IMG/VR virus record: IMGVR_UViG_3300023180_006024
Reading direction: 5' to 3' (one strand)
DNA length: 64,000 nt
Source of the DNA: a virus
Position numbers and translations under genes: made by a program
Shown here: piece after piece, positions 1-39,900 of the stretch
Position numbering within the stretch: position 1 is the first letter of the stretch
Layout of the letters: every line of letters starts with the position of its first letter
Notes under the pieces: generated by a model
The model's input: only the letters and a program-made list of their open reading frames with translations
The model's database searches: none
What the model was told of the DNA's origin: nothing

Positions 1-589
1 GTACAGTTTCAAATGGTATAAACTCAGTTCCGTCATTTAACCAAGGACCATTCATGTTTGTACAGTTTTGAACATAAGGTGACACAGTAACAAGTGCACC
101 TGGTTTGATTTCAGCACACCAACCTGGATCTCTTAGTGCACGGAAAGTAAGTTGAAACAAATAACACGCATTATCCATATAAAATATAGTTTCTGTATTA
201 TTTTTTGGATAAATTTGAGTATTACGTAAACTATCACCTCTAACAGTTTGTCTTGCTTTTAGTGTAATAGGGTTTTCTTCATAAAAGTCTCCGGCAGCAA
301 CATGTATTGTAGCACCAGCAGGAGCTGCTTCAACCGCTGCTTTAACAGTTCTTTTTGCTTGCCCCGGTCCTGCACCTTTACCGTTGTTACTATCGTTACC
401 TTGTAAACTCACATAGTAAACATTATCATTTGTTGCGCCAGGCGAGTTTCCTGTTACATTTAGATTACCTGTTATTGTAACATCTTTTCCTGGCAACGGT
501 GTAAGTTCAATACTACCATCTGCGTTCAAAACAAACGATTGATTGTTTACTTTTCTTTCGTGTAATATCTGCTTCTTTATGTACTTCAT
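1..589 (-). CDS. Partial (runs off left edge) virion/tail protein with a right-handed beta-helix (pectin-lyase-like) domain
   Basis: Not in the ORF track. ATG at 589 overlaps the upstream TAA (TAATG) and the frame stays open to the window edge. Translation MKYIKKQILHERK...VYYVSLQGNDSNNG...AKRTVKAAVEAAPAGATIHVAAGDFYEENPITL resembles the N-cap of parallel beta-helix tailspike domains. Confidence 0.75.
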   Translation of the reverse strand, partial: MKYIKKQILHERKVNNQSFVLNADGSIELTPLPGKDVTITGNLNVTGNSPGATNDNVYYVSLQGNDSNNGKGAGPGQAKRTVKAAVEAAPAGATIHVAAGDFYEENPITLKARQTVRGDSLRNTQIYPKNNTETIFYMDNACYLFQLTFRALRDPGWCAEIKPGALVTVSPYVQNCTNMNGPWLNDGTEFIPFETV

Positions 590-921
590 TATACTTCCAA
601 ATAACTAATAGTAGCACTTAGTTTGTCGTCGTCAGGGCTGTTCAAAATAACCCTATCGCCTGCTTCCAATATCAGTCTTTCAACATTAAATGTAAATGTT
701 TCTTGAGCTGGTAAAGATATACTATTCAATATTAAATTTTCGTTTGATTTAACTCCTCCAGATCCTTTAATAACATGCATATTAAAAGAACTATCGTTTA
801 TACTGTTAGACGATGACGCATAGTTACAAACAAGTAATGTTGTGATAGCATACTTTTTGTCAGCAGGAACCGATAATGCCGTTGTGTCAGTTGATAGTAT
901 TGATACATTGTTTATTGCCAT
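589..921 (-). CDS. Small hypothetical virion protein (110 aa)
   Basis: AAGGA RBS upstream. Beta-rich sequence ending ERLILEAGDRV...ATISYLEV, within a structural operon. Confidence 0.7.
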   Translation of the reverse strand: MAINNVSILSTDTTALSVPADKKYAITTLLVCNYASSSNSINDSSFNMHVIKGSGGVKSNENLILNSISLPAQETFTFNVERLILEAGDRVILNSPDDDKLSATISYLEV

Positions 922-932
922 AATCTAATCCT

Positions 933-1961
933 TTAAAAAATAATACTGTAAAGTAATGCTTTGTTCCTACTAATCAATTCGTCGTTTGTGCTGTTTTCAT
1001 TAATAAAAAACAAACCTGTACCGCCGTCTGCTTCAGTCTTTGAATACAACTTTATACCATCAGTTGGTGCAGTTGGGTCTGTTTGTTTTTCTATTTCAAA
1101 CGGAAACCCTGTAATAATACTGCCTGTTCCATTGGCTGATATCCTCAAGTTACCATCAAGATTTGTTGTTTCCAAATCTCCAGTGCTAAAACGATAATCG
1201 AATATATCTGCATATGATGCTTTAAAAGTTGCTGTAACAATATTGTCTATTTGAATATCAACGCTGCTTACAGTAACATCTGGATCATCTGCATCAAATG
1301 CAGTTACCCTTGTGTCACTATCTTGAAGTGCGGCAATAGTATCTTGGAAGTTCCTTGAGTTATATGCCTTGACATAATCTTTTACAGATTTGACGTTTGG
1401 TATTGCATCGTCGTCAACTGGTGGTTGTAATCTGTCGTCAGTGCTTGGGTTTCCTTGTATTGCACCACTAACATACGGAAATAGTTGTTGTTCGTAGTCT
1501 ACTGTGCCTGTAACACTTAGAAATCCTGTTGAGTTTTCTCCTAAGAGATACAGATTTTGATCATCTGCTGTTTTAATACTTGCAACATGAATACCTAGGA
1601 AATCACCATTGTCATTTGTAAAACTAAATGCACCTGGCTGACTATCATTACCACCCGAGTCAATAGTTGTTAATCTTTCATCAAATAGTAGGTTAGCAAA
1701 AGTTAAAGTTCCTCTATCTATAATCAAGCCGGCAGTGTTTAATGAAACACCAGCGCCTGTTTCGCCGCTGTTGACTGTAATAGTATTATCAGATACTACC
1801 AAGTCACTAGAGCCAACAGTTGTTGTTTCACCTTGCACATTTAAGTTTCCATTAACGAATACTGTGCCTGTGCCGTCACCTGTATCAAATGTAAAGTTGC
1901 CTCCGTCGGAGATCTTTACTTTGTATTCGCTTACTTGATCATACTGTTGTAACTTTAACAT
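933..1961 (-). CDS. Virion/tail-fibre-like structural protein (342 aa)
   Basis: AAGGAG RBS. The motif GNLNVQGETTTV...VSDNTITVN...AGLIIDRG is similar to a segment of 47473..49302. Confidence 0.7.
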   Translation of the reverse strand: MLKLQQYDQVSEYKVKISDGGNFTFDTGDGTGTVFVNGNLNVQGETTTVGSSDLVVSDNTITVNSGETGAGVSLNTAGLIIDRGTLTFANLLFDERLTTIDSGGNDSQPGAFSFTNDNGDFLGIHVASIKTADDQNLYLLGENSTGFLSVTGTVDYEQQLFPYVSGAIQGNPSTDDRLQPPVDDDAIPNVKSVKDYVKAYNSRNFQDTIAALQDSDTRVTAFDADDPDVTVSSVDIQIDNIVTATFKASYADIFDYRFSTGDLETTNLDGNLRISANGTGSIITGFPFEIEKQTDPTAPTDGIKLYSKTEADGGTGLFFINENSTNDELISRNKALLYSIIF

Positions 1962-1971
1962 GTATCACTCC

Positions 1972-2337
1972 TTAGATAGCTGTAAGTCTAAGTAATGATT
2001 CTGTTGAGTCGTCTTCTGCTGTCCATGTATAACGATTGTTGTTGAAGTCTACTGCTGTTCTGTTAAACAACTTTTTGATTGCAATAGCACCACCGCCATC
2101 AACAATACCAATGATTTGGCATTCGCCGTTTGCATTTGGTGCAGAACCATCCGAAGTTAATGTGCATACTTCAGTGACTGAATCACCGTCATTTGAACAG
2201 TTAAACTTGTTTGTTGCTCTTTGTGAAAGAATTTTTCCTTCATACAAACTTCCACCTGAGTAGAAGCGGATTGGAACTGTAGGTGCTGCATCAACACCAG
2301 TTGCTCCGAAGTTTCTTTTATTTACTGGACGTCCCAT
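1972..2337 (-). CDS. Hypothetical late/virion protein (121 aa, MGRPVNKRNFG...)
   Basis: Start moved from 2418 to the in-frame ATG at 2337, which has an AAGGAG RBS. The 2418 ATG lies immediately next to the promoter motif. Confidence 0.75.
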   Translation of the reverse strand: MGRPVNKRNFGATGVDAAPTVPIRFYSGGSLYEGKILSQRATNKFNCSNDGDSVTEVCTLTSDGSAPNANGECQIIGIVDGGGAIAIKKLFNRTAVDFNNNRYTWTAEDDSTESLLRLTAI

Positions 2338-2428
2338 TGTTTTCTCCTTATGTTGACGTTCTAGGTCTACGGGGTTGGGTCCCCATAAGTCCTCATCGTG
2401 AGGCTCTCCTCTTGACATAAGTATTTAT
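2338..2428 (-). promoter_or_regulatory. Late-type promoter (ATAAATA, 2428-2422) with a structured 5' leader
   Basis: Hairpins CCTCA-CGA-TGAGG and TATGGGG-ACCCAA-CCCCGTA. CTTATGT (2421-2415) is complementary to ACATAAG (2353-2347), which overlaps the RBS. Confidence 0.6.
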
Positions 2429-2459
2429 CTTTTTCGTAAAAATGGGTTATAATGTCCGT

Positions 2460-2490
2460 AAAAAAAGGCCTACCGTAGTAGACCTTTTTT
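2460..2490 (-). terminator. Intrinsic terminator (bidirectional-type)
   Basis: GGTCTAC-TACG-GTAGGCC stem with a cUACGg loop, followed by a T run and flanked by A/T tracts. Confidence 0.85.
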
Positions 2491-2708
2491 AATAGTGATA
2501 GGTAGGACTAAGGATTACCTACAAGTGCCGTGACATATCCTGTCTACATAACTAGCACAACCTCACAATAGAATGGTTAGTTCTACTTTCTCTGCAACGC
2601 CTTGTCTCCAAAGTCTTACAGCGCCACCACAGCGTGTGAGTCAAGTTAATGCCTATGTGAAGCATCGTTTCCTTGCACTATCTAACTCGGACCGTCGTCT
2701 TTGTTATG
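2491..2708 (-). ncRNA. Candidate structured non-coding RNA of about 220 nt (family not recognised)
   Basis: GC-richer intergenic stretch with its own sigma70-type promoter and terminator and several nested helices (see findings). Confidence 0.65.
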
Positions 2709-2713
2709 TACTT

Positions 2714-2742
2714 AATATAGCAAAAGAATAAGCTAAGGTCAA
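2714..2742 (-). promoter_or_regulatory. Sigma70-type promoter for the candidate ncRNA
   Basis: TTGACC (2742-2737), 17-nt spacer, TATATT (2719-2714) with an extended -10 TG. Confidence 0.75.
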
Positions 2743-2764
2743 CCACTTTTTTTAAAAAAGTCAT

Positions 2765-2791
2765 AAAAAAAGGCCCCGTAGAGCCTTTTTT
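2765..2791 (-). terminator. Intrinsic terminator after the major capsid gene
   Basis: GGCTC-TACG-GGGCC stem with a cUACGg loop plus T run, 20 nt after the capsid stop codon. Confidence 0.85.
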
Positions 2792-2810
2792 CTTATTTTT
2801 AAAATAAAAC

Positions 2811-3983
2811 TTAGCTGAAGCTTAGGTTTGCAGAAGTAACTTCTACTTTTTCTAGGTAGTCAGCTGCGTTACCAAGTGAAGACGCTGTGTTTGAAAGCTC
2901 AACATAACCGTAACGAGTCATGAAGCTCACGACTGGTTCGAATGTTGTTGGATCAAGTACAACACCGCTTGACATCAATGGGATGTATGGGCAGTAGAAT
3001 GCTGCTGCGTCTGATTCAGATGAACCTTTGTAACCTACAAGTACATCATCGTCGTCTGCATATGTGTTAACATAAATGCGCATTGCGTTGTTTAGTGTAC
3101 CAACCATTTTTGTGTTTGTTGGTGCTTCAAATGAACCTTCAGTAGTACGTGCAAACGCTGATGTTGTTGCTGATTGTAGTACTGTTAAGATTGCTGGTGA
3201 TACAACAGCCCAGTTACCTGCGCCTCTACGTGTACGTTGTGCGATACGGTTTGCTGCACGGTTAACTAGAACCGCTAATGCTGCATGTTCGTCACCAACG
3301 AATGTAGCTGTACCAGATACACCTGCTTGGTTGTATGTGTCTGTACCTGTACCTGCAAGTGTTGCTAGGCTACGTAGTACTTCTTGGTCGATTTCAGCAG
3401 TAATCTCTTGTGCAAGTGCTGCCATGATTTCTGCTTCTACGTCGATACCGTGTTGTGACTGAGCGTCTTGAGCTGACTCAAATGTCCAACGTGCTGATAG
3501 CTTACGTGATTTAGCTTCAACAGTTTGCTTCAAGATTTGGATGCTTAGTCTATTACCAGCTGTACCTTCTTTTGTTGCAGTTGCGTCTGCTTTACCATTT
3601 GCATTACCTGAATAACCTTCAGCAATTTTAAATGGTGAAAGTGCTTCTTCACCTGCTGTTGTTGATCCACCTGCTGTACCTGTGAACGCATCTGCATAGC
3701 GTACACGCAATGTGTGAATCTGGCCAACTGGACCAGTCATTGGTTGAACACCAACGATTTCGTTCGCGATCACTGTTGGCATAACACGTCTGATTACTGG
3801 TAGAATCACACGGTTTAATGTTGCTACGTTACCTGCAGAAGTTGCACCCGCTGTTGCTGTCTCCATCAAATGCTTACGAGTATTTTCAAGAGTTGTTTCC
3901 ATAACAGCTTTTTTGTTGCCTGAAAGGCCTTCGACTAGGGCACCTTTGGTCTCCTGCCAGCGACTTTCTAATAGTTCTGACAT
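2811..3983 (-). CDS. gp23: Major capsid protein, T4 gp23-like
   Basis: Motifs RRVMPTVIANEIVGVQPMTGPVGQIHTLR, KSRKLSARWTFESAQD, YCPYIPL and FMTRYG. AAGGAG RBS. Confidence 0.97.
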   Translation of the reverse strand: MSELLESRWQETKGALVEGLSGNKKAVMETTLENTRKHLMETATAGATSAGNVATLNRVILPVIRRVMPTVIANEIVGVQPMTGPVGQIHTLRVRYADAFTGTAGGSTTAGEEALSPFKIAEGYSGNANGKADATATKEGTAGNRLSIQILKQTVEAKSRKLSARWTFESAQDAQSQHGIDVEAEIMAALAQEITAEIDQEVLRSLATLAGTGTDTYNQAGVSGTATFVGDEHAALAVLVNRAANRIAQRTRRGAGNWAVVSPAILTVLQSATTSAFARTTEGSFEAPTNTKMVGTLNNAMRIYVNTYADDDDVLVGYKGSSESDAAAFYCPYIPLMSSGVVLDPTTFEPVVSFMTRYGYVELSNTASSLGNAADYLEKVEVTSANLSFS

Positions 3984-3995
3984 AATGTTTCTCCT

Positions 3996-5087
3996 TTATA
4001 ATCCAGCTAGACGCTTAATATCAATGACATTTTTGTCATTTGCGTCTGCTTCATTATTGAACTTTTCTTTTCTGTTGCCTGTAATTTCTTTGCCTTCTGT
4101 TAATGGTGCCTTCTGCTTTGCTGGGCTCTTACCATCAATAACCGATGGTAGGTATTTGTCAAACGATTCACGTAGTTTCTTCGTTTGAACTGTTTCCAGT
4201 AAATCTGTCATGATTTCTCGCTGATCTTTACCTAATGGTGCAATCAACTCGTTCATTACTTTTGTACGCTCTTGCGCTTCTACAAGACGAGATACTTCTT
4301 GATCTTTTACTTCAGCAATATCTTTTGCTTTAGCAGCAAGATCTTTTGCCTCAGATAGTAGTTTGTCTTTAGCTGCAAGAACTTTTAATAGTTTTTGAGT
4401 TTCTGATTTTTCGTTCAAATGCGATGACATGTACTCATTTGCAAATGCTTCAAAAATCTTACGCCCAAAATCATTTTGGCGTGCTGAATCAATGTCTTCT
4501 TTCAACTGCGAAATCTCATTTGTCAATGCTTTTTCAACAGTTTCTGAAATCATTGCTGCACTTTTTTGAATAAAGTTTGTTTTAACTTTATTTAGGTGGT
4601 CTTTGCTTTCACGTACTAAACGTACTTTTGTTTCAGCAAGATCTTTTTTGTCTTCTTGGAACTCTGCAATCTCTTGTGAAAGTTGATCTACAACAAACTC
4701 TTCAAGAACAGCAAACTTGCTTGCCATTGCTCTTTGATCTTCGTGTAGTTCATTAACTTCTTTTGCTAAGTTTTCTGTTACAAATCTTTGCAACATACTT
4801 GCATTTTCTTTCATTGCTACTGCATATTTTGCTTTTTGTTCTGCAAGTTGTTTACGATCTTCATGGAACTCTGTCATTTCCTCAGCTAGTTTTTCAGTAA
4901 CTAGTGCGTCAACGGCTTCAACCATAACACCTTTATCGTGCTCGTATTTTTTTGCAAACTCTTCACGCAGTTCAGCAGTTACAGCCACACGATTTTCATT
5001 AACTTTTGAATCAAAAGCTTCTTGAATTTCGGCAGCCATTTGCTCTGTGATTGCTTCGCTCTCTAAAAGGGATTTAAGTGCTTCCAT
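3996..5087 (-). CDS. Prohead core/scaffolding protein, gp22-like
   Basis: E/K/A-rich coiled coil located between the protease and capsid genes, as in T4-like phages. Confidence 0.8.
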   Translation of the reverse strand: MEALKSLLESEAITEQMAAEIQEAFDSKVNENRVAVTAELREEFAKKYEHDKGVMVEAVDALVTEKLAEEMTEFHEDRKQLAEQKAKYAVAMKENASMLQRFVTENLAKEVNELHEDQRAMASKFAVLEEFVVDQLSQEIAEFQEDKKDLAETKVRLVRESKDHLNKVKTNFIQKSAAMISETVEKALTNEISQLKEDIDSARQNDFGRKIFEAFANEYMSSHLNEKSETQKLLKVLAAKDKLLSEAKDLAAKAKDIAEVKDQEVSRLVEAQERTKVMNELIAPLGKDQREIMTDLLETVQTKKLRESFDKYLPSVIDGKSPAKQKAPLTEGKEITGNRKEKFNNEADANDKNVIDIKRLAGL

Positions 5088-5099
5088 TGTATTCTCCTT

Positions 5100-5720
5100 T
5101 TATTGGAGCCTGCTTATTATATCTAATAAGCTCTCTTTGATGTATTTTTTTGCCTTTGGGTCGCCTGTTACTTCTTTAGAAGTTAATAATGCCTTGTATC
5201 CACCTTTTTCGTTCATTATATGCTCGTAAATTGGTGTAGGATACGCACCGGGGGCGCTGGGCTGAGCCACAACGTCCACAGTGATTATTTCAAAGCCCGA
5301 AACATCTCCGGACTCGTTTACTTCACCGCTACCTCTAGATGAGACACCTAGTTTAACGCCGCTTTCTAGCATTGTTTTTACTAGGCCTCCCATCGGAGTT
5401 GGTAGGATTTTTAGTTTTCCGTAACCATTTGGTCCGTCCATCCACATTTCTGTTACCATGTGACATACACGATCAAGGTTAATATTAAGTCCTTCAGGAT
5501 GATCAACTTCGCCTAAAACTGAGTAACCGCCGCTTATTTGCTCATTGAGCGTGGTGACAGCCCTGCCAATTTCTTCTACGGGATAAACACGCTGGTTAGC
5601 GTTTTTTACGCCGCCTTGAATGCAAATACCTTTCATGTAAAGATCTTTGCCTTCGTTGGCAGACTCAACGACCATTCTAGCTTGGTCAAAACTTAGATTT
5701 TCACGTAGTTGAAACATCAT
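5100..5720 (-). CDS. gp21: Prohead protease, T4 gp21-like
   Basis: Motifs NANQRVYP, LGEVDHP, GVSSRGSG and DVVAQPSAPGAY. Confidence 0.95.
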   Translation of the reverse strand: MMFQLRENLSFDQARMVVESANEGKDLYMKGICIQGGVKNANQRVYPVEEIGRAVTTLNEQISGGYSVLGEVDHPEGLNINLDRVCHMVTEMWMDGPNGYGKLKILPTPMGGLVKTMLESGVKLGVSSRGSGEVNESGDVSGFEIITVDVVAQPSAPGAYPTPIYEHIMNEKGGYKALLTSKEVTGDPKAKKYIKESLLDIISRLQ

Positions 5721-5732
5721 TTAGTCCTTATC

Positions 5733-6704
5733 TTAGCTGCCAATAGTTGATTTTTTATTGTCAGCAGTCTCTGGCTTGCCCTTTTTCTCAGCGCCGTGGC
5801 CAGGTTCGTTTTTCATGCCAGATTTGGCACTTGTACCGCCTTTAACATTTCTGTTACCTGCGTTATCTTCTTTTGTAGATGGCTGTGCTAAACCGCCTGC
5901 TGTACCTTTTGTATCAGCTTCGCCGCCTGCTACGATGTTTGACGTTGTTCCGCCCATATCGTTTTTACCTGCTACTGGTGATTTTGCGTTTGCGCCGTTG
6001 TCACCTTTTTTTGGTTCGTCTGCCATTTTGTTAGCATACTCACGCATGATTTCTGCTGCTGATTTGTCTGTTGATTCTTCAACTTCTTCATCTGCTGCTT
6101 CTTCTACTTCCTCGTCAGCTGCTTCTTCTACTTCCTCGTCAGCTGCTTCAAATGGCATATCCATTGCTTCTTCTTCAGCTTCGTCGTCATCGCCTTCATC
6201 TTCGTCGCCCATCATTTTTTCAAACTCGGCTTGTAGATTTTGGAATGCTGCTTCTAGATCAGCCATTGCTTCTTCTGGACCTTCAGGTGCTTCTTCGTCG
6301 TCACCTTCTTCGTCATCATCGCCATCCATGTCGGCTGCAATGTCACCCATCATGTCGTCTGTTTCGTCTCCGCCCATTTCTGGTGCGTCTAGTTCGTCTA
6401 GACCAAACATTTCGTCAAGGTCGTCTTCTTCTGACTCGTCAACTTCTTCATCAGTTGCTTCGTCTACTTCCTCGTCTGCTGATTCATCAACTTCTTCATC
6501 AGTTGCTTCATCAACTTCTTCATCAGTTGCTTCGTCTAGGTCATCATCTTCTGATTCGTCGACTTCTTCGTCTGACTCGATGATGTTTTGGTAAATCTCA
6601 CGTGATTTTTCTACCACGATTTCGTGGAATAGCTCTTCTGCACCTTCTTTGTCTTCATTGACAAGACGCTCGAGCATTTCCTCAAACTTATTTAGATCAG
6701 TCAT
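5733..6704 (-). CDS. Highly acidic prohead core/scaffold protein
   Basis: Start placed at ATG 6704 (AAGGAG RBS). D/E-rich with EEVDEATD-type repeats, directly upstream of the protease. Confidence 0.75.
   Translation of the reverse strand: MTDLNKFEEMLERLVNEDKEGAEELFHEIVVEKSREIYQNIIESDEEVDESEDDDLDEATDEEVDEATDEEVDESADEEVDEATDEEVDESEEDDLDEMFGLDELDAPEMGGDETDDMMGDIAADMDGDDDEEGDDEEAPEGPEEAMADLEAAFQNLQAEFEKMMGDEDEGDDDEAEEEAMDMPFEAADEEVEEAADEEVEEAADEEVEESTDKSAAEIMREYANKMADEPKKGDNGANAKSPVAGKNDMGGTTSNIVAGGEADTKGTAGGLAQPSTKEDNAGNRNVKGGTSAKSGMKNEPGHGAEKKGKPETADNKKSTIGS
6075..6580 (-). repeat. Two clusters of imperfect 24-nt coding repeats (EAADEEVE / EATDEEVD)
   Basis: Repeated tcaacttcttcatcagttgct and gctgcttcttctacttcctcgtca units at about 6075-6150 and 6430-6580. 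Confidence 0.8.
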
Positions 6705-6801
6705 GATTATCTCCTTTATTGTCAAGGCTGTCAGTTATATTTACACTTTTTAGAAAAATATGCGTAGAAATGGGCTCATTTGAGCCTATTTTCTAAGCAG
6801 T

Positions 6802-7521
6802 TTAAGAAATATTAAATTGTTTTTTAAAATCTTTTACTGTAATATGTTCTAGATTTGGTATTCCTTCTAAGTTATCTGGCAAAAAATAATCTTTATCTTG
6901 CACAACTCTGATATATTTAGTACTAGAGTTTTGTCGTAATATAGTCATAGTTTGACGAGACCAGTTGCCAAAATACGTTGCTTTGTCATTAACTTTTTTA
7001 TAGTTATCAGTTCCTGCATAGATATTATTAACTAGTTCATGTTTTCTACCTATGCCTTGGTAGTCAAAACCTAAAATATATATAATATCATTTTCATGTT
7101 TGCTTGCTAAGTTGAGTGCAGTAGGTCCGCTACTCCAACCTAAGTTAGGATTAAAAAGGTTTAATCCTGGTATGCTTCTTGTATACTTGTTAGGGTTAGT
7201 CCATACATTTCCGTGTTGTAAATGGTAGTTTTTGTTGCTTATTTCACGTATCATTTTAGTGTCTACGGCAATCAAATAATCTGGATTAAAGGACCTATAC
7301 AATGCATTACAACCATATATTCTTCCGTGTGGTCTAAGTAATACAGGATCGATACTTTCTCTGCTAGTTCCATTGCCTAGAACAAATGCTGTACGTCCTA
7401 TAATCATACTAGGACGTTCTGCTATTTCTTGAAGTTGTTTTTGTTCTTGTCTAGCTTTTTCTAGGCGCTTCCTGGCTTTTCTTTGTTCTTTGGTTTCGCC
7501 AGGTATATATTTTTTAACCAA
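6802..7521 (-). CDS. Maf/DUF115-like (GT29-like fold) putative nucleotide-sugar transferase
   Basis: Motifs AFVLGNGTS, IYGCNALY, PDYLIAVD, SSGPTAL and IYILGFDY. Confidence 0.55.
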   Translation of the reverse strand: MVKKYIPGETKEQRKARKRLEKARQEQKQLQEIAERPSMIIGRTAFVLGNGTSRESIDPVLLRPHGRIYGCNALYRSFNPDYLIAVDTKMIREISNKNYHLQHGNVWTNPNKYTRSIPGLNLFNPNLGWSSGPTALNLASKHENDIIYILGFDYQGIGRKHELVNNIYAGTDNYKKVNDKATYFGNWSRQTMTILRQNSSTKYIRVVQDKDYFLPDNLEGIPNLEHITVKDFKKQFNIS

Positions 7522-7529
7522 CTTAACTC

Positions 7530-7778
7530 CTACAGTGCTTCCTCAGGTTGCTGTGCTGCAATACCATACATTTGTCTTATATGCACTAAATCTTTTTGCG
7601 CCTCTTGTCTGTGCATATCATCTGCCCTACGTGCTTTGTTGATATCTTTAAGTGTAAGTCTAGTTTTACGTGTGTCATCCATATCTACAATTGATTCATC
7701 GTCTTCAGCATTATATCGCTGATCTTCAATAGGTTCCATTGTATCTTTGTCAAAGTAATATAGTTCACGTAATATCAT
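7530..7778 (-). CDS. Small hypothetical head-module protein (82 aa)
   Basis: ORF directly after the portal gene, preceded by ATAAATA. Confidence 0.7.
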   Translation of the reverse strand: MILRELYYFDKDTMEPIEDQRYNAEDDESIVDMDDTRKTRLTLKDINKARRADDMHRQEAQKDLVHIRQMYGIAAQQPEEAL

Positions 7779-7785
7779 AATGTAT

Positions 7786-30500: not shown

Positions 30501-30981
30501 CAGCGATGAAGTAATATACCATCCTGTAAAGTACAAAGTACTGTTTGGCGATAAGGCAGAAAATGCATTGAAAGCAACATTTAAAATAGTAAAATCAAAA
30601 GAGCGTGTTACAAATGATAATGATATTAAGTCAAGAGTTATTGAAGCAGTAAATCAATATTTTGCTTTAGAAAACTGGGACTTTGGAGAAACATTTTACT
30701 GGAGTGAACTTTCTGCATATATAATGAACAGTTTGTCACCTGATATTACCAGTATTGTTATTGTTCCTAATGATAGCACTAGTGCATTTGGTAGTTTATT
30801 TGAAGTAAACAGTGAAAGCGATGAGTTGTTTATTAGCGGCGCAACTGTGGCAGACGTTGAAATCATTACAGCAAATACAGCAGAAAAACTCAAATCTCAA
30901 GGAAATCTAGTAACAGATACTTCAAACACAACAGCTGGAATACAAAGCACCACTAATATAATAGTAGGTGGAGGATATTAA
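27577..30981 (+). CDS. gp6: Baseplate wedge subunit, gp6-like (extended)
   Basis: Motifs DFENLR, AERRESVLRMARLLSY, FSDGTFG and ESTDSIKTNAP...QNRLITGEDY. Confidence 0.88.
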   Translation: MSSTDRQNRLLLAEDWQKIYQSFKYADFKSYDFENLRRTMINYIRQNYPEDFNDYIESSEYLALIDMIAFLGQNISFRVDLNARENFIELAERRESVLRMARLLSYNVTRNQAAKGLLKISSVSTTENITDSNGTNLSGKTVKWNDTVNTNWYEQFIKVVNASLNTINRFGTPNKLDNVAGIPTEKYKVNVANGILPIFTFNSSVNGADLEFEVVSADIQDGSIVEEPPLPGNTFGILYKDNGQGPGSTQSGFFVNFVQGSLQKGDFTVNLPTPNQTIDINITNVNNNDVWLYGLNESNVEQDLWTKVEAVEGNNIIYNSVSKGIRNIFSVLTRSEDRISLIFSDGTFGELPKGTFRSYYRRSANRDFDILPADIKNVTLRIPYTSSKGRVETMIIVADLASPVYTATSTESTDSIKTNAPSTYYTQNRLITGEDYNVGPLGVSQEIIKIKSINRTSSGINRYYDLTDATGKYSTTNLFADDGILYKETINKVDAFDFLTRTDIEAIINNKITSILADNNIRNFYLSEFTEQNYTELNLKWNQETYDSSSSSGYITDGDINFAVSTATSGPLKYVEPGALVKFTPPEGYYFDKDNKIVFGTPANLGDKTEIWTKVINVYDTGTSVTDAGLGGILLDDFVPTDAVLNSLKIKYVRDIIDDVKNQMIDQVFSYKTFGLRYDLVDRQWKVILQEDLNVLGDFSLGLAGDVTGQKLDSSWVVLFETNGDTYNITYRTIRYIFESKSQTRFYFDNNKKIYDSKTGKIIRDKVSVLNINRDLYSEGTTSPFTVDYDWAISSEFRDLNGYVDSKKVEVIFFDNDDDGVVDNPEIFEKIVTFGDTDYIFLKKVAYADSEFYQYCDDVITVGTPDATVDGVWYDANNDTFYSTNSSTRKVTELTGYKAFRGRDNLKFQYVHASDENARIDPSSSNIIDLFVLTKTYDTLFRQYLIGNVASMPLPQSSDSLYRDYGESINAIKSISDEVIYHPVKYKVLFGDKAENALKATFKIVKSKERVTNDNDIKSRVIEAVNQYFALENWDFGETFYWSELSAYIMNSLSPDITSIVIVPNDSTSAFGSLFEVNSESDELFISGATVADVEIITANTAEKLKSQGNLVTDTSNTTAGIQSTTNIIVGGGY

Positions 30982-33900
30982 TGGCATACGAAAAAAATCA
31001 AAACGAATCACCTATTCCTACAGACGAAAACTTTACAAGAACAGCTAGTGAGTTTCTTCCTAAGTATTTTAGAACTGATACAAACAAAAAGTTTCTACAA
31101 TCTAGTATAGATCAGATGATTAGTTCTGGAACACTTGAAAAACTGAATAGTTTTGCAGGTAGAAGATATGCAAGAGCAACAAAAGTTGATGATGCATTTT
31201 ATCCAGATGTAACAGAAACAAGAGAAAATTATCAGTTTGAAACAAGCACTGTTATTAAAGATACTTTAGATAATGTGACGTTTTTTGGTGATTATATTGA
31301 TTATTTAGGAGCCTTAAAGTACTATGGTGTGGATACAACAAATCATAATATTTTGAATAAGCAACAAAGTTATAGTTTAGATAGCCATATTGATTGGGAT
31401 AAGTTTACAAACTTTAGAGAATATTATTGGTTACCACTAGGGCCAAAACGTATAACAGTAGTTGGACAAAGTAAAAGCGTACAAAGTACATATAAGATTA
31501 CTACTAGTAATCAAGATGACAACACAACTTATGTGTTTACACCTAATGGATTTACTAATAATCCAACGATCACCCTTTACAAAGAACAAACATATCGTTT
31601 TGAAATCAATGCACCTGGGCACGGGTTTGCATTTACTTATAATAGAAATGTTGAAGATTTAAATCCTACAAATGAAATAGAACAAAATAATCTTTCAAGG
31701 ATATACACAAAAGGTATTAAAAAGTTTGTCTATGATAGCGAAGGAAAACTAGCAGAAACTGATTTAGATTACATTGAAAATGGTGTTATTGAATGGACTG
31801 TACCTGTAGATGTACCTGAAGATTTATATTACATAAGCGAAACAGATATTAATACAAGTGGTATTGTGTTAAGTAAAGATATCACAGAAAACAGCGAAAT
31901 CAATGTTGAAGAAGAAATACTAGGTAAAAAAACATACACAACAAGCAACGGTATTAAGTTGTCAAATGGTATGAAAGTTAGATTTGCCGGCAGTGTTACA
32001 CCCGAACAGTATGCAGATGGTGAATGGTTTATTGAAGGTGTAGGAGATAGCATCAGAATAATCAATCAGCAAGATCTTGAAGTTCCTGCTGTATTTACTG
32101 ACGAAATTGAAGTTCCTTTTGACACGTTCAACTTTGACGATGTGCCATTTGAAAATGCTGATAGTTATCCAGCTGTACAAGATTATATTGTGATTAATAG
32201 AGGCAGTGCTGACAGAAATCCTTGGAGTAGATATAATCGTTGGTTCCACAGAGATGTGATTATTGCATCAGCTGAAGCGAACAATGCAGATCCTGAGTTA
32301 GACGAAGTTTCAAGAGGCAAACGTCCTATTATTGAGTTTGATGCAGGACTGAAACTTTGGAATCACGGAAATAAAACAAAACAAAATATCAATCTTGTTG
32401 ATACATTCACAACTGATGTTTTTAGTACAATAGAAGGTAGCTTGGGTTACAGTATTGATGGTGTCGAAGTAACTAACGGTATGCGTGTAATGTTTACAGC
32501 AGATCCTGATAGTTTTGTAAATGGAAAAATATATATTGTAAACTTTATAGAACATAATGGTAGAACTCAGATTAGTCTTGTTCCATCAACTGATTCAGAT
32601 CCTGCAGAAGGCGACACAGTACTAGTTACTGGTGGAACAGAATACAAAGGAAAAATGTTTTTCTATGACGGAGATAAATGGAATCTAAGTCAAGAAAAAA
32701 CAAAAGTTAATCAAGCACCATTATTTGATTTATTTGATAAAAATGAAACAAACTTAAATGATACTGTTTATTATCCTACAAGTAGTTTTAGAGGAAATAA
32801 AGTATTCAGTTATGCTCAGGGCACCGGTGCTAATGATAGTATTCTAGGTTTTCCATTAAAATATAGAAACATTAATAATATCGGCGATATTGTTTTTGAT
32901 TTTAATCTTTTATCTGAAACTATTTCCTATCAAGACGAACTACAAAACGATTTTACTGTTAACAGTGACGTATTATTTTTAAAAAAATACAACTACACTG
33001 GCGATACTTTCGAATATAAAAATGCCTGGACAAAAAGTAGTGCTCAAACTATCCAGCCGGTTATATTACAATACAATAATATGTTAAACAACTTTCCTAT
33101 TGATTGTTTTAATAATGCAGGTAATTTAGACGATTTGTTTATCAAACTTTTTGTCAATGGAACAAAAAGAAATGATTACACTATTACAAAAAGAAATGGA
33201 TTAGCATTTGTCACACTTGACACTGATCTTGAATCAGCAGAACTTGTTGTTGTAAAATGTTATAGTAATGCGCCAAAAAATAATAATGGTGTGTATGAGA
33301 TACCTCTTAACTATGAAAGAAATCCATTAAATGAAAATATAACAACATTTACTTTAGGAGAAGTAAATGATCATGTTAAAACTATAACTGATTTCCATCC
33401 AGAGTTTGCAGGCGATGCACTTGGTGTTAATAACTTGAGAGATCTAGGCCCACTAAGTCCGTATGGCAGATTATTAATGCAACACGAAGGTCCTCTAAAT
33501 CTTCCATTATTCCATCTTGTTTCAAAACAATACAATGCTGTTAAAGGCTTAGATGTTGCGAGGAAAAGTTATAATACATTTATAAGAAGCTTCTTAAGAG
33601 AAGCAGAAAAAAATGCTTTTTCTGGTAGTGTAAAAGAACATGTTGATTTTATTTTACAAGAAATAAACAAAGATAAAAGTCCTACACAAAATTTTTATAC
33701 ATCTGATATGGTTCCTTTTGGAGGATATACAGTTGAACAACATGATATAGATTTTAATGGACCGACATATATTGCGTTAAAGAAAACATTTACATTAGAT
33801 TCTCTAAGTAATAAAGCAGTACTTGTTTACAGAAATGATGTGCAGTTAGTACACAATAAAGATTATACTTTCAGTGACGGGTTTGTGTATATTAGTATAG

Positions 33901-36900
33901 ATTTAGTACAGAATGATGTTATTAAAATATTTGAGTATGAAAACACAAATGGAAGTTTTGTTGCACCTACTCCTGTGAAGTTGGGATTATTACCTGCATA
34001 CGAACCAGAGAAATATATTGATAACACCTATTTAGAATCAAAAACTGTTATTCAAGGACACGATGGTAGTATTACAGTTGGATATGACGATTATAGAGAC
34101 GATCTTTTATTAGAACTTGAAAAAAGAATATACAATAATATAAAAGTAAAATATGATGCTGACATACTTAATGTATATGATTTTATACCAGGATACGATA
34201 GAACAACTAACTTTAGTAAAAATGACATTGATGCATTAATGCTTGGAGGTTTTAGCGAGTGGTTATCTTTTGCAAACAATTTTGATTATACAAAAAATAA
34301 TACAATCGAAGGTAATGGATTTACTTATAACTATAGTAGTACCAACGACTTTGCTGATAAAACTCTAAAAGGTTCGTGGAGAAATGTTTATAAAACATAC
34401 TACGATACAGACAGACCGCATACACATCCTTGGGAAATGTTAGGATTTACTGTAAAGCCAACTTGGTGGAATGAAGTTTATGGTCCAGCACCTTATACAG
34501 GAGATAACTTTGTTTTATGGCAGGATTTAGAAAAAGGTATTGTTAGAGAGCCAAACAAACCTATTGTTGTAAAAGACAAATTTAAAAGAACCAACTTAAC
34601 AAAACATATTCCTACTGATCAATATGGCAGACTTTTAGATCCAACTGCTAGTGGTTTGGCAAAAGGAACACTATTAAAAACTGTAAAAAATCCTTTTGTT
34701 TATGGAGATCAAAGTCCTGCAGAAACAGCTTGGAGAAGAAGCAGCGATTTTAGATTTAGTTTATTACGAGCTTGGATGCTATTAAGTCCTGCAAAAGTTT
34801 TTGGTTTAGGATTTGACAGAAGTAGAATCACAAAAGATATTGTTGGAAATATTGTGTGGAGTGATACACAAAAGCGTGTAAAGCTGCAAGACATTGTTGT
34901 GCCTATGATAAAAAGTGATATGCAATATTTGACAGCAGGCATTATAAACTATGTAACTGCAAATATTAGCACTCGTATTGATACAAAACTTTCTGATTAT
35001 AAAGATGAACTTGCAAAGATTAAAAACCAACTAAGCATAAGATTAGGTGGTTTTGCAGATAAAGATAAAATCAAACTGGTACTCGATAGCAGAAGTCCTT
35101 TAAATAAAACAAGTGTGTTTGTACCAGATGAAAACTACAAAATATTCTTAAACAAAAGTTCAGTACAAGATATACCTTCTATTTCAGGAATGATCATTGA
35201 ACAACTAAAAAATGCAGATGGCGAATCAACTGGTTTTACTATTAGAGGTTACGATATTGAAAATCCTGTGTTTAACTATTATCCTCATATTCCGCAGTTT
35301 AACGATCCTGGAATAACAGTTGGCGGTATTAGTGAAAGTTATGTAAACTGGGGTACAGATCAACTATACACTAAAGGCACAGTTGTATTTTATTCAGGTA
35401 GATACTATAGAGCATCTATTACACATACCAGCGGTAATAGTTTTGATAACGAAAACTTTGTTGGACTATCCAAGTTGCCTGAAGTTGGCGGCATTGGAGC
35501 ACAGATAAGAAAAGTATTTGATTATTCAAATCCACAAAAAATATATTATGGAGCATATTTTTCTAGCGTTCAAGAAGTAGTAGATTTTATGTGTGGCTAT
35601 GAAGCATACTTAAAACAACAAGGATTTATTTTTAATAACGTAAGCGATGCAGGTGTTCTTGAAGATATGACACTTTGTATTAAAGAGTTTTTGTTTTTCA
35701 ACACACAAAACTGGGATCAAGGTGCAGTAATCAGCACAAGTCCTGTTGCAAATAAACTTACATTCTTTAGAGATTATTTTGGTGTTGATGATATTTACGA
35801 ACCGTTTTACAACTATAACTTGTTAGGTGGAAACGGACAAAAAATTGAACCAGCATTTGTAAACCTGTTTAGAGACAACACAGACTTTAATGTTCAGTCA
35901 TTAGGCGAAGGTGTTTACCTTGCTAAACTACCTTTAATACAAACCGAACATGTTATTCTAATAGACAACGAAACAGTATTCAATGATGTTATATACGACA
36001 CAATACCTGGATACAAACAAGAAAGAATAAAAGTTGTAGGGTATAGGACAGATTTTTGGGATGGTACACTTAATGTTCCAGGATTCTTCTATGACGAAGC
36101 AAAAGTAGTAGAATGGACACCAAACACTGATTATACTGTTGGCGATCTAGTAAAGTTTAAACAGTTTTACTATTCTAATGTAACTGGTCATACAAGCGGA
36201 GAAACTTTTGACAGTAGCCAATGGACACTATTAAGCAGTAGACCACAAGACCAACTATTTCCTAACTGGGATTATAAAGCAAAACAGTTTGCTGATTTCT
36301 ACGATTTAGACACTGATAACTTTGATGCGGAGCAACAAAGATTAGGTCAGCACTTAATAGGTTACCAAAAAAGAGATTATCTAAATAATATTATTACAGA
36401 TGCAACAAGTCAGTACAAGTTTTATCAAGGATTTATCCAAGATAAAGGAACAAAAAATGCACTTACAAAACTATTTGATCCATTGAGTAGTGCAAATGCA
36501 GATAGTATTGAGTTTTTTGAAGAATGGGCATTACGTCTAGGACAATACGGTGCAATAGATAATATAGAAGAAGTTGAGTATGTTTTAGACGATAAAAAGT
36601 TTAAGACAGAACCACAAATAGTTGAACTAGTTCAAAATAAAACACCAGCAAGAACTGATCTTACATTTGAAATAGCAGATTTTGAAGTATATGCAAAACC
36701 TTTAGGTTATAACCATAAACCATTTACTGTTAGAAATGATAATGAAATATACACAAGAGATGCTGGTTATGTTAGAGACAAAGATGTAGACTATAGTGTT
36801 GCATCTTATGACGATTTAGCAAAACTAGATATTGAAAGCGTAAAAATAGGCGATAATATCTGGGTGCAAAAAATAAAACAATCTTGGACAGTTTTACAAA

Positions 36901-39900
36901 ATGTTGACACTGATTTAAAAGTGACAAGATTAGAAGTTGATAACGATAAGTTACAAGGCGTTCCTGGATATACAATAACTGTAGATACATATAACCATAA
37001 CATCAAAAAAGACGATGTGATTGGTGTATATGCAAGTGTACAAGAAGGCAGAGGCTTCTTTAAAGTAATAAATGTTGAAGGCAAATCGTTTACAGTTCAA
37101 ACGGAAAAAGATGTTGATGTAGAACAGTTCAACGATAGTAGTATTCCTGGTATTTCGAGATTTATTGCAAAAAGATATGCAGATGTTGATACCTGGAATA
37201 CAGAGGCAAAAAACAAAAAAACTTATTGGCAGGATAAAGTTTGGTTAGATGCAGACGGCAACGGTGATTGGTCTGTTTACCAGCATAACAAATCTTGGAG
37301 TTTACAAGAAGAAACAAACAATGAATATGAAACTGATGTAAACTTTTTAACATCTTTTGCAAGTAATGCAACAAATACACATCTTGCAGTAGGAACTTCA
37401 CTATATCAAAATCCAAGCAGTCTTGGTGCTGTAAAGATTTGGAATAGAACAAATGAATCATTTACAAAAACAGACATTTATGATTTAACACCAGATGTAG
37501 ATTATCATGATGACAATAGTGGATTTGGTTCTAGTATTGCAATAAGTGATGATGCAAAGTATATTGCAGTTGGTGCACCAACAGCCTCAAATGTTAAAAC
37601 AAAGTTTGTAGGCGACCTTTATAGTTTAGACAGTGCAAATATTTTCTTTAATGACATTGTTGCAGACAGAGGGGTGCTGTGGAAAGCCAAAAAAAACATT
37701 AACGATATTGACTACAAAGTTGGACAAGATGGAAGTACTATTAACAGTTTAAGTCAAGACTTCGAACCTGCTTACATGATACCTGCAGACGCAGACGGAT
37801 TAGCAAGTGGATTAAATAGTCAAGGTTGTGTTTATATTTTTAAAAGAAGCGATTTACAATACTATGTTTTAGATCAAATAATCACAAGTCCAAACCCAGT
37901 TTCTGAAGAAGAGTTTGGATACAGTGTGCAGTTTAGAAACAATCCAGATACAGGATTAAAACTGTTTATTGGTGCACCAGGTGCAGACGCAGGAAAGATT
38001 TACTTTGTAGGATATGATGATATAAATGGATGGCAGTATACAACCAACAGAGACTACAAAGGCGAGTATAGTGCAACGTATGCATACAACAAAGATGATA
38101 TAGCATTATATGATTACAAGTTTTATAAAGCATTAGATAACTTGACACCTGGACAAGCAGATCCAACGGATGCAACCAAGTGGGAAGAGCTAAGTGAAAA
38201 TGCAACTTATACAGAGCATACCGGGTATGTACCTAACTATGCAGAAAGTTTAAATGCAGCAAGTCAAGGTATATTTAATGCAGGTTCTCGTATAGGCGAA
38301 AAGTTTGATGTTAACAAACATGGTGATGTATTAGTATTTGCTGCTGTAAACACTGATAATACACCTGAAAGAAAAGTAGGAATATATGCAGCACCTAATC
38401 GACGTTGGCAATATATTCAAACAATAGAAATAGAAGACAGTACAAGTTTTGGAAAAAATATTGCTATTAATGATAACGGTGATAAAGTTGCTGTTAGTGC
38501 AATGCAATATGATGGTTCTACGACTGATACCGGTGCTGTCTATGTTTTCAAAAAAACAGGCACTGGTTTGCAGGCATTTGCACTCGATCAACTTGTAGAA
38601 AATCCGTATTCGGGTAAAGACAAGCTATTTGGTCAAAACATGAAATTTAGCGGAAACAAACTAGCTGTTTCTGGTAAAAATATTGACAACAGATATCAAA
38701 CTATTTTTGATAATGACACAACTATTTTTGATGCAGGAAATACTGCTTTTGGATATTTAGAAGACAGCACCGGAGGCATAGTTGTATTTGAAGAAATAGC
38801 AAACAAGTTTGTGTATTCTGAAACTCTTGAATATTTAAGAGAAACTAGCAACTTTAACTTTGATTATTTTGACTTTGTAGATAATCATATTTACGTTGCA
38901 TTTGAAAATATGGTTCCTGCACTAGAAGGCGAAAGAATTGATACAGATACATATCCCGAATACTTAGATAGTACAAATGTAAACAAAGGTGTTATCGCTG
39001 ATTTTAGAATCGCAAAAAACACAAACACATGGAATACACTAGTACAGCAAAGTGAAAAGATTGATATTTCAAATATTAATCGTGTGTTTATATACGATAA
39101 GAAAACCAAAGATATTATAACTAACTTAGATTTTGTGGATCCTCGTTTAGGAAAAATACCTGGACCTGCAGAGCAAGAAATTTATTATAAAACTTTCTAT
39201 GACCCAGCAGTCTACACAACTAGTGATAATGTCAGCACAATCGTTGACAGTGGTATTAACTGGACAGATGAACAGGTAGGTAGATTATGGTGGAATGTAA
39301 GTAAAGCATCGTGGTATAATCCTTACCAAGATTCGAACACATACAGGACTGCTTATTTCAATAAGTTATTACCAAGCTCTGAAGTAGAAGTTTGTGAATG
39401 GGTAGGAACAACATTAACACCAAGTGAATGGAACGAGATTGCCAACACTGCTCAAGGGTTTGCAAAAGGTATAACTGGGACTACACTTTATGATGACAAC
39501 ACATTTAGCAGTAAGCCTGTTTTTGATGAAGTTAAACAATCATTTACAAACTACTATTACTACTGGGTAAAAAATACTTTGACTGTTCCGGAAAATGGAA
39601 TAAGAAAACTAAGTGCAGACGATGTTGCAAAAGTTATTAGTGCGCCACAGGACTATGGTTATAGATTTATTACACCACTGAGCACTTCTAGTTTTGCACT
39701 GTACAACGTTGCATCTTTTGTAAATGGCAAAGATTCCATTTTGCATATTAGCTTTACTAAAGATCAAGATAATAAAAATAATATTCATTACGAATATCAG
39801 TTGTTAAGCGAAGGATTTGCTACAACTAAACTAGATTCGGAAATAGAACGAAAGTGGGTTGATAGTTTAGTAGGATATGACGAAAATGTTAGACCTGTAC

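Follow-up and report, generated by a model that had tools for sequence, protein, structure and literature searches.

A divergent manA-family RNA with its own promoter and terminator, probably a free-standing gene, behind the capsid gene of an uncultured giant phage

Main finding

The window, i.e., the whole stretch of 64,000 nucleotides analysed here (IMG/VR record IMGVR_UViG_3300023180_006024), contains a structured RNA between the major capsid gene and the next late gene. This RNA (2492-2701, minus strand) very probably belongs to the manA family (RF01745), and the joint claim, i.e., family membership plus a free-standing arrangement, is likely. Weinberg et al. 2010 (PMC2864571) described manA as a riboswitch candidate of cyanophages and marine bacteria, located in 5' UTRs. 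The window locus and its 28 relatives provide comparative evidence for manA as an independent RNA gene in giant gp23-type phages, and these giant-phage members extend the family beyond cyanophages. Comparison across the loci speaks against the riboswitch label and agrees with a recent in vitro result on RNA cages; together with covarying putative assembly loops, it supports a structural or trans-acting role over cis-regulation. A preliminary description had read the same stretch as a stand-alone RNA gene and had implied that it was new: the first part is retained, the second is not.

Genomic context of the RNA unit

All genes of window positions 1-9500 are on the minus strand. On this strand the order 3' of the capsid gene is: terminator, A/T-rich tract, promoter, gene-free structured stretch, second terminator. 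The features are the following (window positions, strand, feature).

2811-3983 (-): major capsid protein gene, T4 gp23 type, 390 aa (Pfam Gp23, 4e-100, and PHROG major head protein); upstream neighbour of the RNA unit
2765-2791 (-): intrinsic terminator of the capsid gene, with a cUACGg loop and a U-run (terminator scan)
2743-2759 (-): A/T-rich tract TTTTTTAAAAAAAGTGG directly 5' of the -35 element, UP-element-like from its sequence (putative function)
2714-2742 (-): sigma-70-type promoter TTGACC-17-(TG)c-TATATT (10/12 matches, TG extension)
2492-2701 (-): manA-family RNA core (RF01745), very probable: 5' hairpin, closing stem P1 and eight inner helices (cmscan, covariation)
2460-2490 (-): intrinsic terminator of the RNA gene, 1 nt past the RNA core and without overlap with it

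The capsid protein is 72% identical to that of Vibrio phage 2.275.O, the nearest cultured relative, followed among cultured phages by Sinorhizobium Phosso, Pseudomonas PA5oct and Cronobacter GAP32, all of them giant phages. By its sequence, the carrier of the manA cassette is an uncultured giant phage of the gp23-capsid group (GAP32/PA5oct/Vibrio 2.275.O-like). No manA is found anywhere in Vibrio 2.275.O, Phosso, PA5oct or GAP32, where only about 90-120 nt follow the capsid gene.

The RNA unit is shielded from upstream transcription since the capsid terminator precedes it; a counterpart of this terminator is present also in relatives devoid of the manA cassette. The promoter and the two flanking terminators (2765-2791 upstream; 2460-2490, with its cUACGg loop, downstream) are as the preliminary description had them, and no tRNA or tmRNA was found in the window; that description had seen no such hallmarks in the RNA. 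Its view of a structured non-coding RNA with a host-type promoter and a terminator of its own, insulated from the capsid gene, agrees with the promoter, the terminator and the relatives.

Family membership

A cmscan against Rfam 15 assigns 2492-2701 (-) to manA (RF01745) with 55.4 bits for a gathering score of 55.2, i.e., a margin of 0.2 bits. The E value is 3.8e-13 for the region and 2.1e-11 for the whole window, and the match covers model positions 1-192 of 192. manA is the sole Rfam family above threshold in the 64-kb window. An ordinary Rfam scan would label the RNA as manA; since the family is catalogued, the RNA is not a new RNA class, and the novelty implied by the preliminary description, which had itself listed a known-family match among its refuting outcomes, is lost. 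The hits around the terminators (L20 leader, STnc sRNAs, etc.) are A/T-rich terminator look-alikes, far below the Rfam thresholds, and were rejected.

Because the Rfam score is borderline, independent tests of the assignment were made. The relatives considered are 80 IMG/VR contigs with a capsid protein 80-94% identical (the L numbers of three digits below designate such relatives). The Rfam manA model has matches in 22 of them, mostly sub-threshold. A covariance model, R1, was built only from 21 manA RNAs of the giant-phage clade. It detects the RNA in the window and at 28 of the 80 related loci, always on the strand of the capsid gene and 108-1001 nt 3' of it. Another gap of the window, 14165-14602, is neither detected by R1 nor matched by an Rfam family at gathering score in the whole-window searches. 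Moreover, R1 retrieves the manA RNA of Prochlorococcus phage P-SSM2 over its full length (37.3 bits, E 3.6e-10), an RNA that scores 181.6 bits against RF01745. By blastn, the region has no match in 50,697 phage records.

The 56 base pairs of the Rfam alignment were mapped onto the alignments of the clade. In the MAFFT alignment 84.2% of the cells are paired vs. 35-44% when the partners are slid, and 45 of the 56 pairs are compensatory. In the model-based alignment the values are 86.7% vs. 36-43%, with 47 of the 56 pairs compensatory. The covariation values are reached by none of 500 shuffles. RNAalifold on the raw MAFFT alignment recovers the structure in part only; the Rfam-derived structure and the model-based alignment were used in its place. 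Covariation in related capsid-downstream regions, a check that had been proposed at the outset, is thus observed (47/56 pairs; cassette in 28 of 80 contigs). The loop and junction sequences GUGGUG, UAACCA and UUGunGGUA...UCC are seen both in the cmscan alignment and beside P-SSM2.

Membership in manA is well supported by (i) the full-length Rfam match, (ii) the reciprocal match of R1 and (iii) the covariation. On the same sequence comparisons, the giant-phage clade is a divergent branch of manA that the Rfam threshold mostly misses: the window RNA has 55 bits and the clade 30-80 bits vs. 182 bits for P-SSM2 (RF01745).

Comparison with cyanophage manA

The manA motif of cyanophages (e.g., P-SSM2 142837-143034) has the same consensus fold as the window RNA over the whole model. 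P-SSM2-type manA and the window RNA share the 5' hairpin, the closing stem, the GUGGUG and UAACCA loops, the GNRA arm and the GGUA...UCC hairpin. Cyanophage manA also has its own promoter (TTGACA-N17-TATAAT) directly upstream, and in cyanophages S-SSM5 and P-RSM4 it lies right after gp23, as in the window. No manA match is found in Syn9 or S-RSM4.

The differences concern the P2 region, the GNRA arm (about 17 nt longer in the window clade) and the carrier: the window clade belongs to non-cyanophage giant phages, whose cultured relatives are without manA. The manA RNAs of this clade are not 5' UTRs, because they are in all cases followed by a separate strong terminator and never directly by an ORF.

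Helices and loops of the fold

In the predicted manA core, the closing stem P1 bounds a junction of several helices, from which six arms capped by hairpins extend. The helices were numbered from the closing stem, and the loops were mapped to the L numbers of Ren et al. from the helix order and the GNRA loop. In this putative numbering, only helices 3, 5, 6, 7, 8 and 9 are capped by a hairpin and L6 is the GNRA loop; since the same loops are obtained, with L6 as GNRA, these L numbers are taken as those of Ren et al. The elements are as follows.

2690-2699 (-): 5' hairpin GAC-GACG-GUC, first hairpin of the manA model (covaries: GGA/UCC, GGC/GUC and others)
2622-2634 (-): hairpin with the conserved loop UGUGGUG, putative L5 (manA consensus mapping)
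2592-2621 (-): arm CUGUAA...UUGCAG with the inner hairpin CUUUG-GAGA-CAAGG, GNRA loop, putative L6 (11/11 pairs compensatory)
2569-2585 (-): hairpin UAGAA-CUAACCA-UUCUA, putative L7 (manA consensus mapping)
2525-2558 (-): arm GUGC...GCAC with apical GACA-GGAUA-UGUC, putative P8/L8 (outer helix 98% paired, 4/4 pairs covary)
2502-2522 (-): hairpin GUAGG-UAAUCCUUAGU-CCUAC, putative P9/L9 (100% paired in the alignment)

The GNRA tetraloop is retained by nearly all homologues. The helices listed by the preliminary description (CTGTAA/TTGCAG enclosing CTTTG-GAGA-CAAGG, CGCT/GGCG, TAGAA/TTCTA, CTCACA/TGTGAG, GACA/TGTC and GTAGG/CCTAC) are those of the manA consensus. Most of them covary in the homologues, except that P7 (TAGAA/TTCTA) and inner P8 (GACA/TGTC) are only 59% paired in the alignment. 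A TAACT/AGTTA extension and a second partner of TGTGAGG, i.e., CTTCACA, had also been put forward; in the alignment neither sequence is retained even by the closest relatives. Pairing of the 5' and 3' ends, which makes the closing stem, holds in the family in the register GAUAG/CUAUC, and the ATAGTG/CACTAT pairing first described is a window-specific alternative, shifted by 1-2 bases.

In the window, UGGU of L5 is complementary to ACCA of L7, and AGGAU of L8 (2537-2541) to AUCCU of L9. The relatives have L5/L7 variants (UAGU/ACUA, GGUA/UACC) and L8/L9 variants (AAUGA/UCAUU, CUGAU/AUCAG, GAGA/UCUC, CAGA/UCUG). When partners are permuted, in a test that ignores phylogeny, the observed complementarity is reached in 0 of 5000 permutations for L8-L9 and in 24 of 5000 for L5-L7. 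Control loop pairs are not significant in the same permutation test.

The window RNA looks mosaic: its 5' two-thirds are near-identical to the L019/L017 type, and its P8-P9 part is of the L060 type. The complementary loops L8 and L9 appear to have been exchanged together, since AGGAU and AUCCU are both within the L060-type part.

Assembly or monomer

The sole experimental information on the manA family is that of Ren et al. 2026 (preprint, bioRxiv 10.64898/2026.07.01.735769), obtained in vitro. Five manA RNAs form RNA-only octamers, decamers or a T=1-like 60-mer shell. Their building blocks are pentamers, held together by kissing loops (L5-L7', L8-L9' or L3-L8') and by a contact of the L6 GNRA loop with its receptor. 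The RNAs of Ren et al. are of Photobacterium or cyanophage type and shorter than 200 nt. They are of the same family as the window RNA, in which L5/L7 and L8/L9 (putative mapping) are complementary and covary and the GNRA loop L6 is present.

The following course may be proposed. A strong host sigma-70 promoter would start transcription near 2707, an RNA of about 245 nt would be made, and the strong intrinsic terminator 2460-2490 would end the transcript. The L5/L7 and L8/L9 loops would then form intermolecular kissing contacts, as in other manA RNAs, and the RNA would self-assemble into RNA-only oligomers in the infected cell. Such self-assembly in vivo is a tentative reading, with somewhat less than an even chance. 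It is preferred because both loop pairs are complementary, covary and match, in the putative mapping, the loops that build the cages. A wider reading is more speculative and rather doubtful: giant-phage manA would be an abundant free-standing early RNA, forming decamers or 60-mer shells with their own role in infection, and moving as an «RNA moron». If true, the shells would, e.g., sequester or protect a component of the host or of the phage, and manA would become the first RNA cage from nature whose genomic signature points to a stand-alone function.

The same locus might instead produce a free-standing, trans-acting RNA that remains monomeric (decoy, anti-defence RNA or protein sponge), with the loops engaged in intramolecular pseudoknots and no oligomer in vivo. 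The evidence for a stand-alone unit applies equally to it, and the covariation between loops fits intramolecular pairs equally well; Weinberg et al. 2010 drew a «pseudoknot?» (PMC2864571). This reading is nonetheless unlikely. All five manA RNAs studied gave discrete oligomers in vitro via loop-loop contacts (bioRxiv 10.64898/2026.07.01.735769), the monomer has no known protein partner or target, and cmscan of the region against Rfam finds nothing that resembles 6S, SRP or another trans-acting family at any threshold. Of the roles suggested in the preliminary description (decoy, anti-defence, 6S/SRP-like, catalytic), none finds support in the analysis.

Promoter, transcript and terminator

The TTGACC-17-TATATT promoter is unique in the 64 kb: the pattern GGTTGAC-N16-18-TATWWT occurs once vs. 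0.04 times expected. A near-consensus sigma-70 promoter lies 11-19 nt 5' of the RNA at 29 of 29 loci, and the homologous cassettes are likewise preceded by a comparable A-rich tract with GGTTGAC at its end. Transcription is predicted from the promoter to start near 2707, and the unit would be early, to judge from the promoter type.

The predicted transcript of 251 nt has a folding energy of -74.7 kcal/mol (z = -3.1), lower than all 200 shuffles. In the terminator 2460-2490 (-14.7 kcal/mol), A/U pairs lengthen a 7-bp G+C stem that carries a cUACGg loop and is followed by U7; the pairing probability within the full predicted transcript is at least 0.97. Among the homologous loci with enough downstream sequence and no tRNA (n = 21), a terminator of -11 to -19 kcal/mol lies 3-11 nt past the closing stem in all 21, and its sequence varies between loci. 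In 20 of the 21 this terminator pairs with a mean probability of 0.9 or more (equilibrium ensemble, full transcript). Its arms are no more complementary to the fold than shuffled arms are (mean z -0.5 and -0.7; 21 loci).

The next gene and its leader

Beyond the RNA unit, on the same strand, are found:

2421-2429 (-): GATAAATAC, T4-late-promoter-like element of the next gene, outside the RNA unit (sequence)
2335-2405 (-): freshwater-2 RNA motif (RF02980), 5' leader of the MGRP gene (47.3 bits vs. a threshold of 49.9)
1972-2337 (-): next gene, MGRPVNKR..., 121 aa, with the start set by AGGAG-N-ATGGGACG, conserved in relatives

The MGRP gene opens a late structural block that leads on to tail-fibre-like genes; its protein has no Pfam or PHROG family match. 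The longest ORF (148 aa, 1972-2418, ATG at 2418) is probably mis-started, the true start being at 2337, because the AGGAG-spacer-ATGGGACG arrangement is conserved in relatives. The 81 nt between ATG 2418 and the start 2337 are the freshwater-2 leader.

The T4 late promoter is TATAAATA, which GATAAATAC resembles. Six ATAAATAC sites are present in the window (2421, 7782, 18964, 27071, 44753 and 50918), all in sense orientation and just 5' of ORF starts, and their raw count equals chance expectation. Their placement is consistent with a T4-type late promoter in the phage of the window. Whether or not a relative carries the cassette, the late-type element lies 73-110 nt 5' of its MGRP start codon.

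Positional homologues of the sub-threshold freshwater-2 motif score 73.3 bits (L059:3625-3713) and 72.2 bits (L013:5390-5471). In Rfam, freshwater-2 (RF02980) is a cis-regulatory candidate known from metagenomes; the MGRP leader of giant phages gives this motif a concrete genomic context.

Free-standing gene or leader

The promoter-RNA-terminator cassette follows the capsid gene in 28 of the 80 related giant-phage contigs. In 36 informative relatives the RNA, its promoter and its terminator are missing together and the MGRP gene is kept: directly after the capsid terminator come GATAAATAC, the leader and this gene. Two lineages, L026/L097 and L065/L105, carry a tRNA gene 5 nt 3' of the manA RNA and before the terminator:

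L026:4499-4573 and L065:4366-4439 (same in L097 and L105): tRNA-Gly(UCC) with encoded CCA

As the terminator comes after tRNA-Gly, the manA-tRNA unit yields only RNAs. Behind the cassette, L051, L059 and L073 have another promoter and another gene instead. Given the uniform arrangement and the presence or absence as a block, promoter, RNA and terminator behave like a self-contained, mobile cassette, placed in a variable gap that two late genes flank.

These data bear on the possibility that the manA fold is a transcription-terminating riboswitch or another cis-regulatory leader, sensing a ligand or a factor and controlling read-through of 2460-2490 into the late genes. The order promoter, fold, terminator and gene fits such a leader, the proposal of Weinberg et al. 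(PMC2864571) and the Rfam type «Cis-reg» speak for it, and in P-SSM2 16 nt separate the end of the fold from purL. The P-SSM7 fold shares its 3' tail with a terminator-like hairpin. At the window locus, however, the RNA is not placed in, or co-transcribed as, the 5' UTR of the next gene, as the «Cis-reg» type of Rfam and Weinberg et al. has it. An expression platform is not seen either: in the clade the terminator never overlaps the fold, and anti-terminator complementarity does not exceed that of shuffles, although a kinetic switch need not show anti-terminator pairing at equilibrium. Two candidate fold-terminator pairs of the window, GUAGAC/GUCUAC and GUAGG/CCUAC, were rejected, being neither kept in relatives nor above shuffles. 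In addition, a conserved late-type promoter and leader belong to the downstream gene itself, and the 36 cassette-less relatives retain this gene unchanged; tRNA-Gly separates fold and terminator in two lineages; the downstream genes differ in L051, L059 and L073; and in P-TIM68 a convergent gene follows manA. No manA ligand has been reported since 2010 in the literature searched, and a 2020 review of orphan riboswitches omits manA. Control of the next gene by this RNA is therefore improbable, even more so than the monomeric reading.

The manA RNA of the window is most likely free-standing and not a switch for the next gene. This reading of the sequence data is favoured over a leader because (i) there is no overlap with the terminator; (ii) the MGRP gene has its own promoter; (iii) 36 relatives lack the cassette; (iv) tRNA-Gly lies between RNA and terminator in two lineages. 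Terminator-type riboswitches show the same succession of elements as the window: a promoter, a structured domain, an intrinsic terminator and the gene. The window differs from them in that domain and terminator neither overlap nor compete for pairing, the gene has an independent promoter, and presence or absence of the cassette leaves the gene unchanged.

A small protein is scarcely conceivable as the product: a 37-codon ORF (2552-2665, minus strand) and a 52-codon ORF (2573-2731, plus strand) do exist in the window, but neither their position nor their frame is shared by an ORF of any homologue (the 37-codon ORF, not conserved, was rejected on this ground, in line with the preliminary description, which had seen no convincing ORF), the closest relatives L019 and L017 have no ORF of at least 25 codons, substitutions in helices are compensatory, indels are not multiples of three and ATG 2665 has no ribosome-binding site.

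Other phage RNAs and minor observations

ROOL and GOLLD are described as large, ornate, phage-associated RNAs forming RNA-only homo-oligomers (Kretsch et al. 2025, PMC12286853). Like the manA RNA of the window they are phage-borne and highly structured; a free-standing state and self-assembly, which they also have, are probable and putative, respectively, for the window RNA. They are much larger (about 600-800 nt) and occur in different hosts, and the window RNA has no Rfam match to either of them. Genes for ROOL and GOLLD often adjoin tRNA genes, which matches the manA genes of L026 and L065.

In L059 a glutamine riboswitch aptamer (RF01739) is found at 2734-2783 (58 bits vs. a threshold of 35). 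It lies directly 3' of the capsid terminator and before a small ORF, in the gap common to manA and freshwater-2. Since this gap holds the glutamine aptamer, manA and freshwater-2, the capsid-to-MGRP gap appears to collect structured RNAs and small promoter-bearing cassettes.

In L010 (4627-4815) about 170 nt beginning with TATAAATAC are found between the manA RNA and the terminator (about 4790-4815). This unassigned stretch could hold a further RNA or else a small gene.

Far from the RNA unit, one ORF of 4591 aa occupies window positions 30981-44756 (plus strand) within the structural region.
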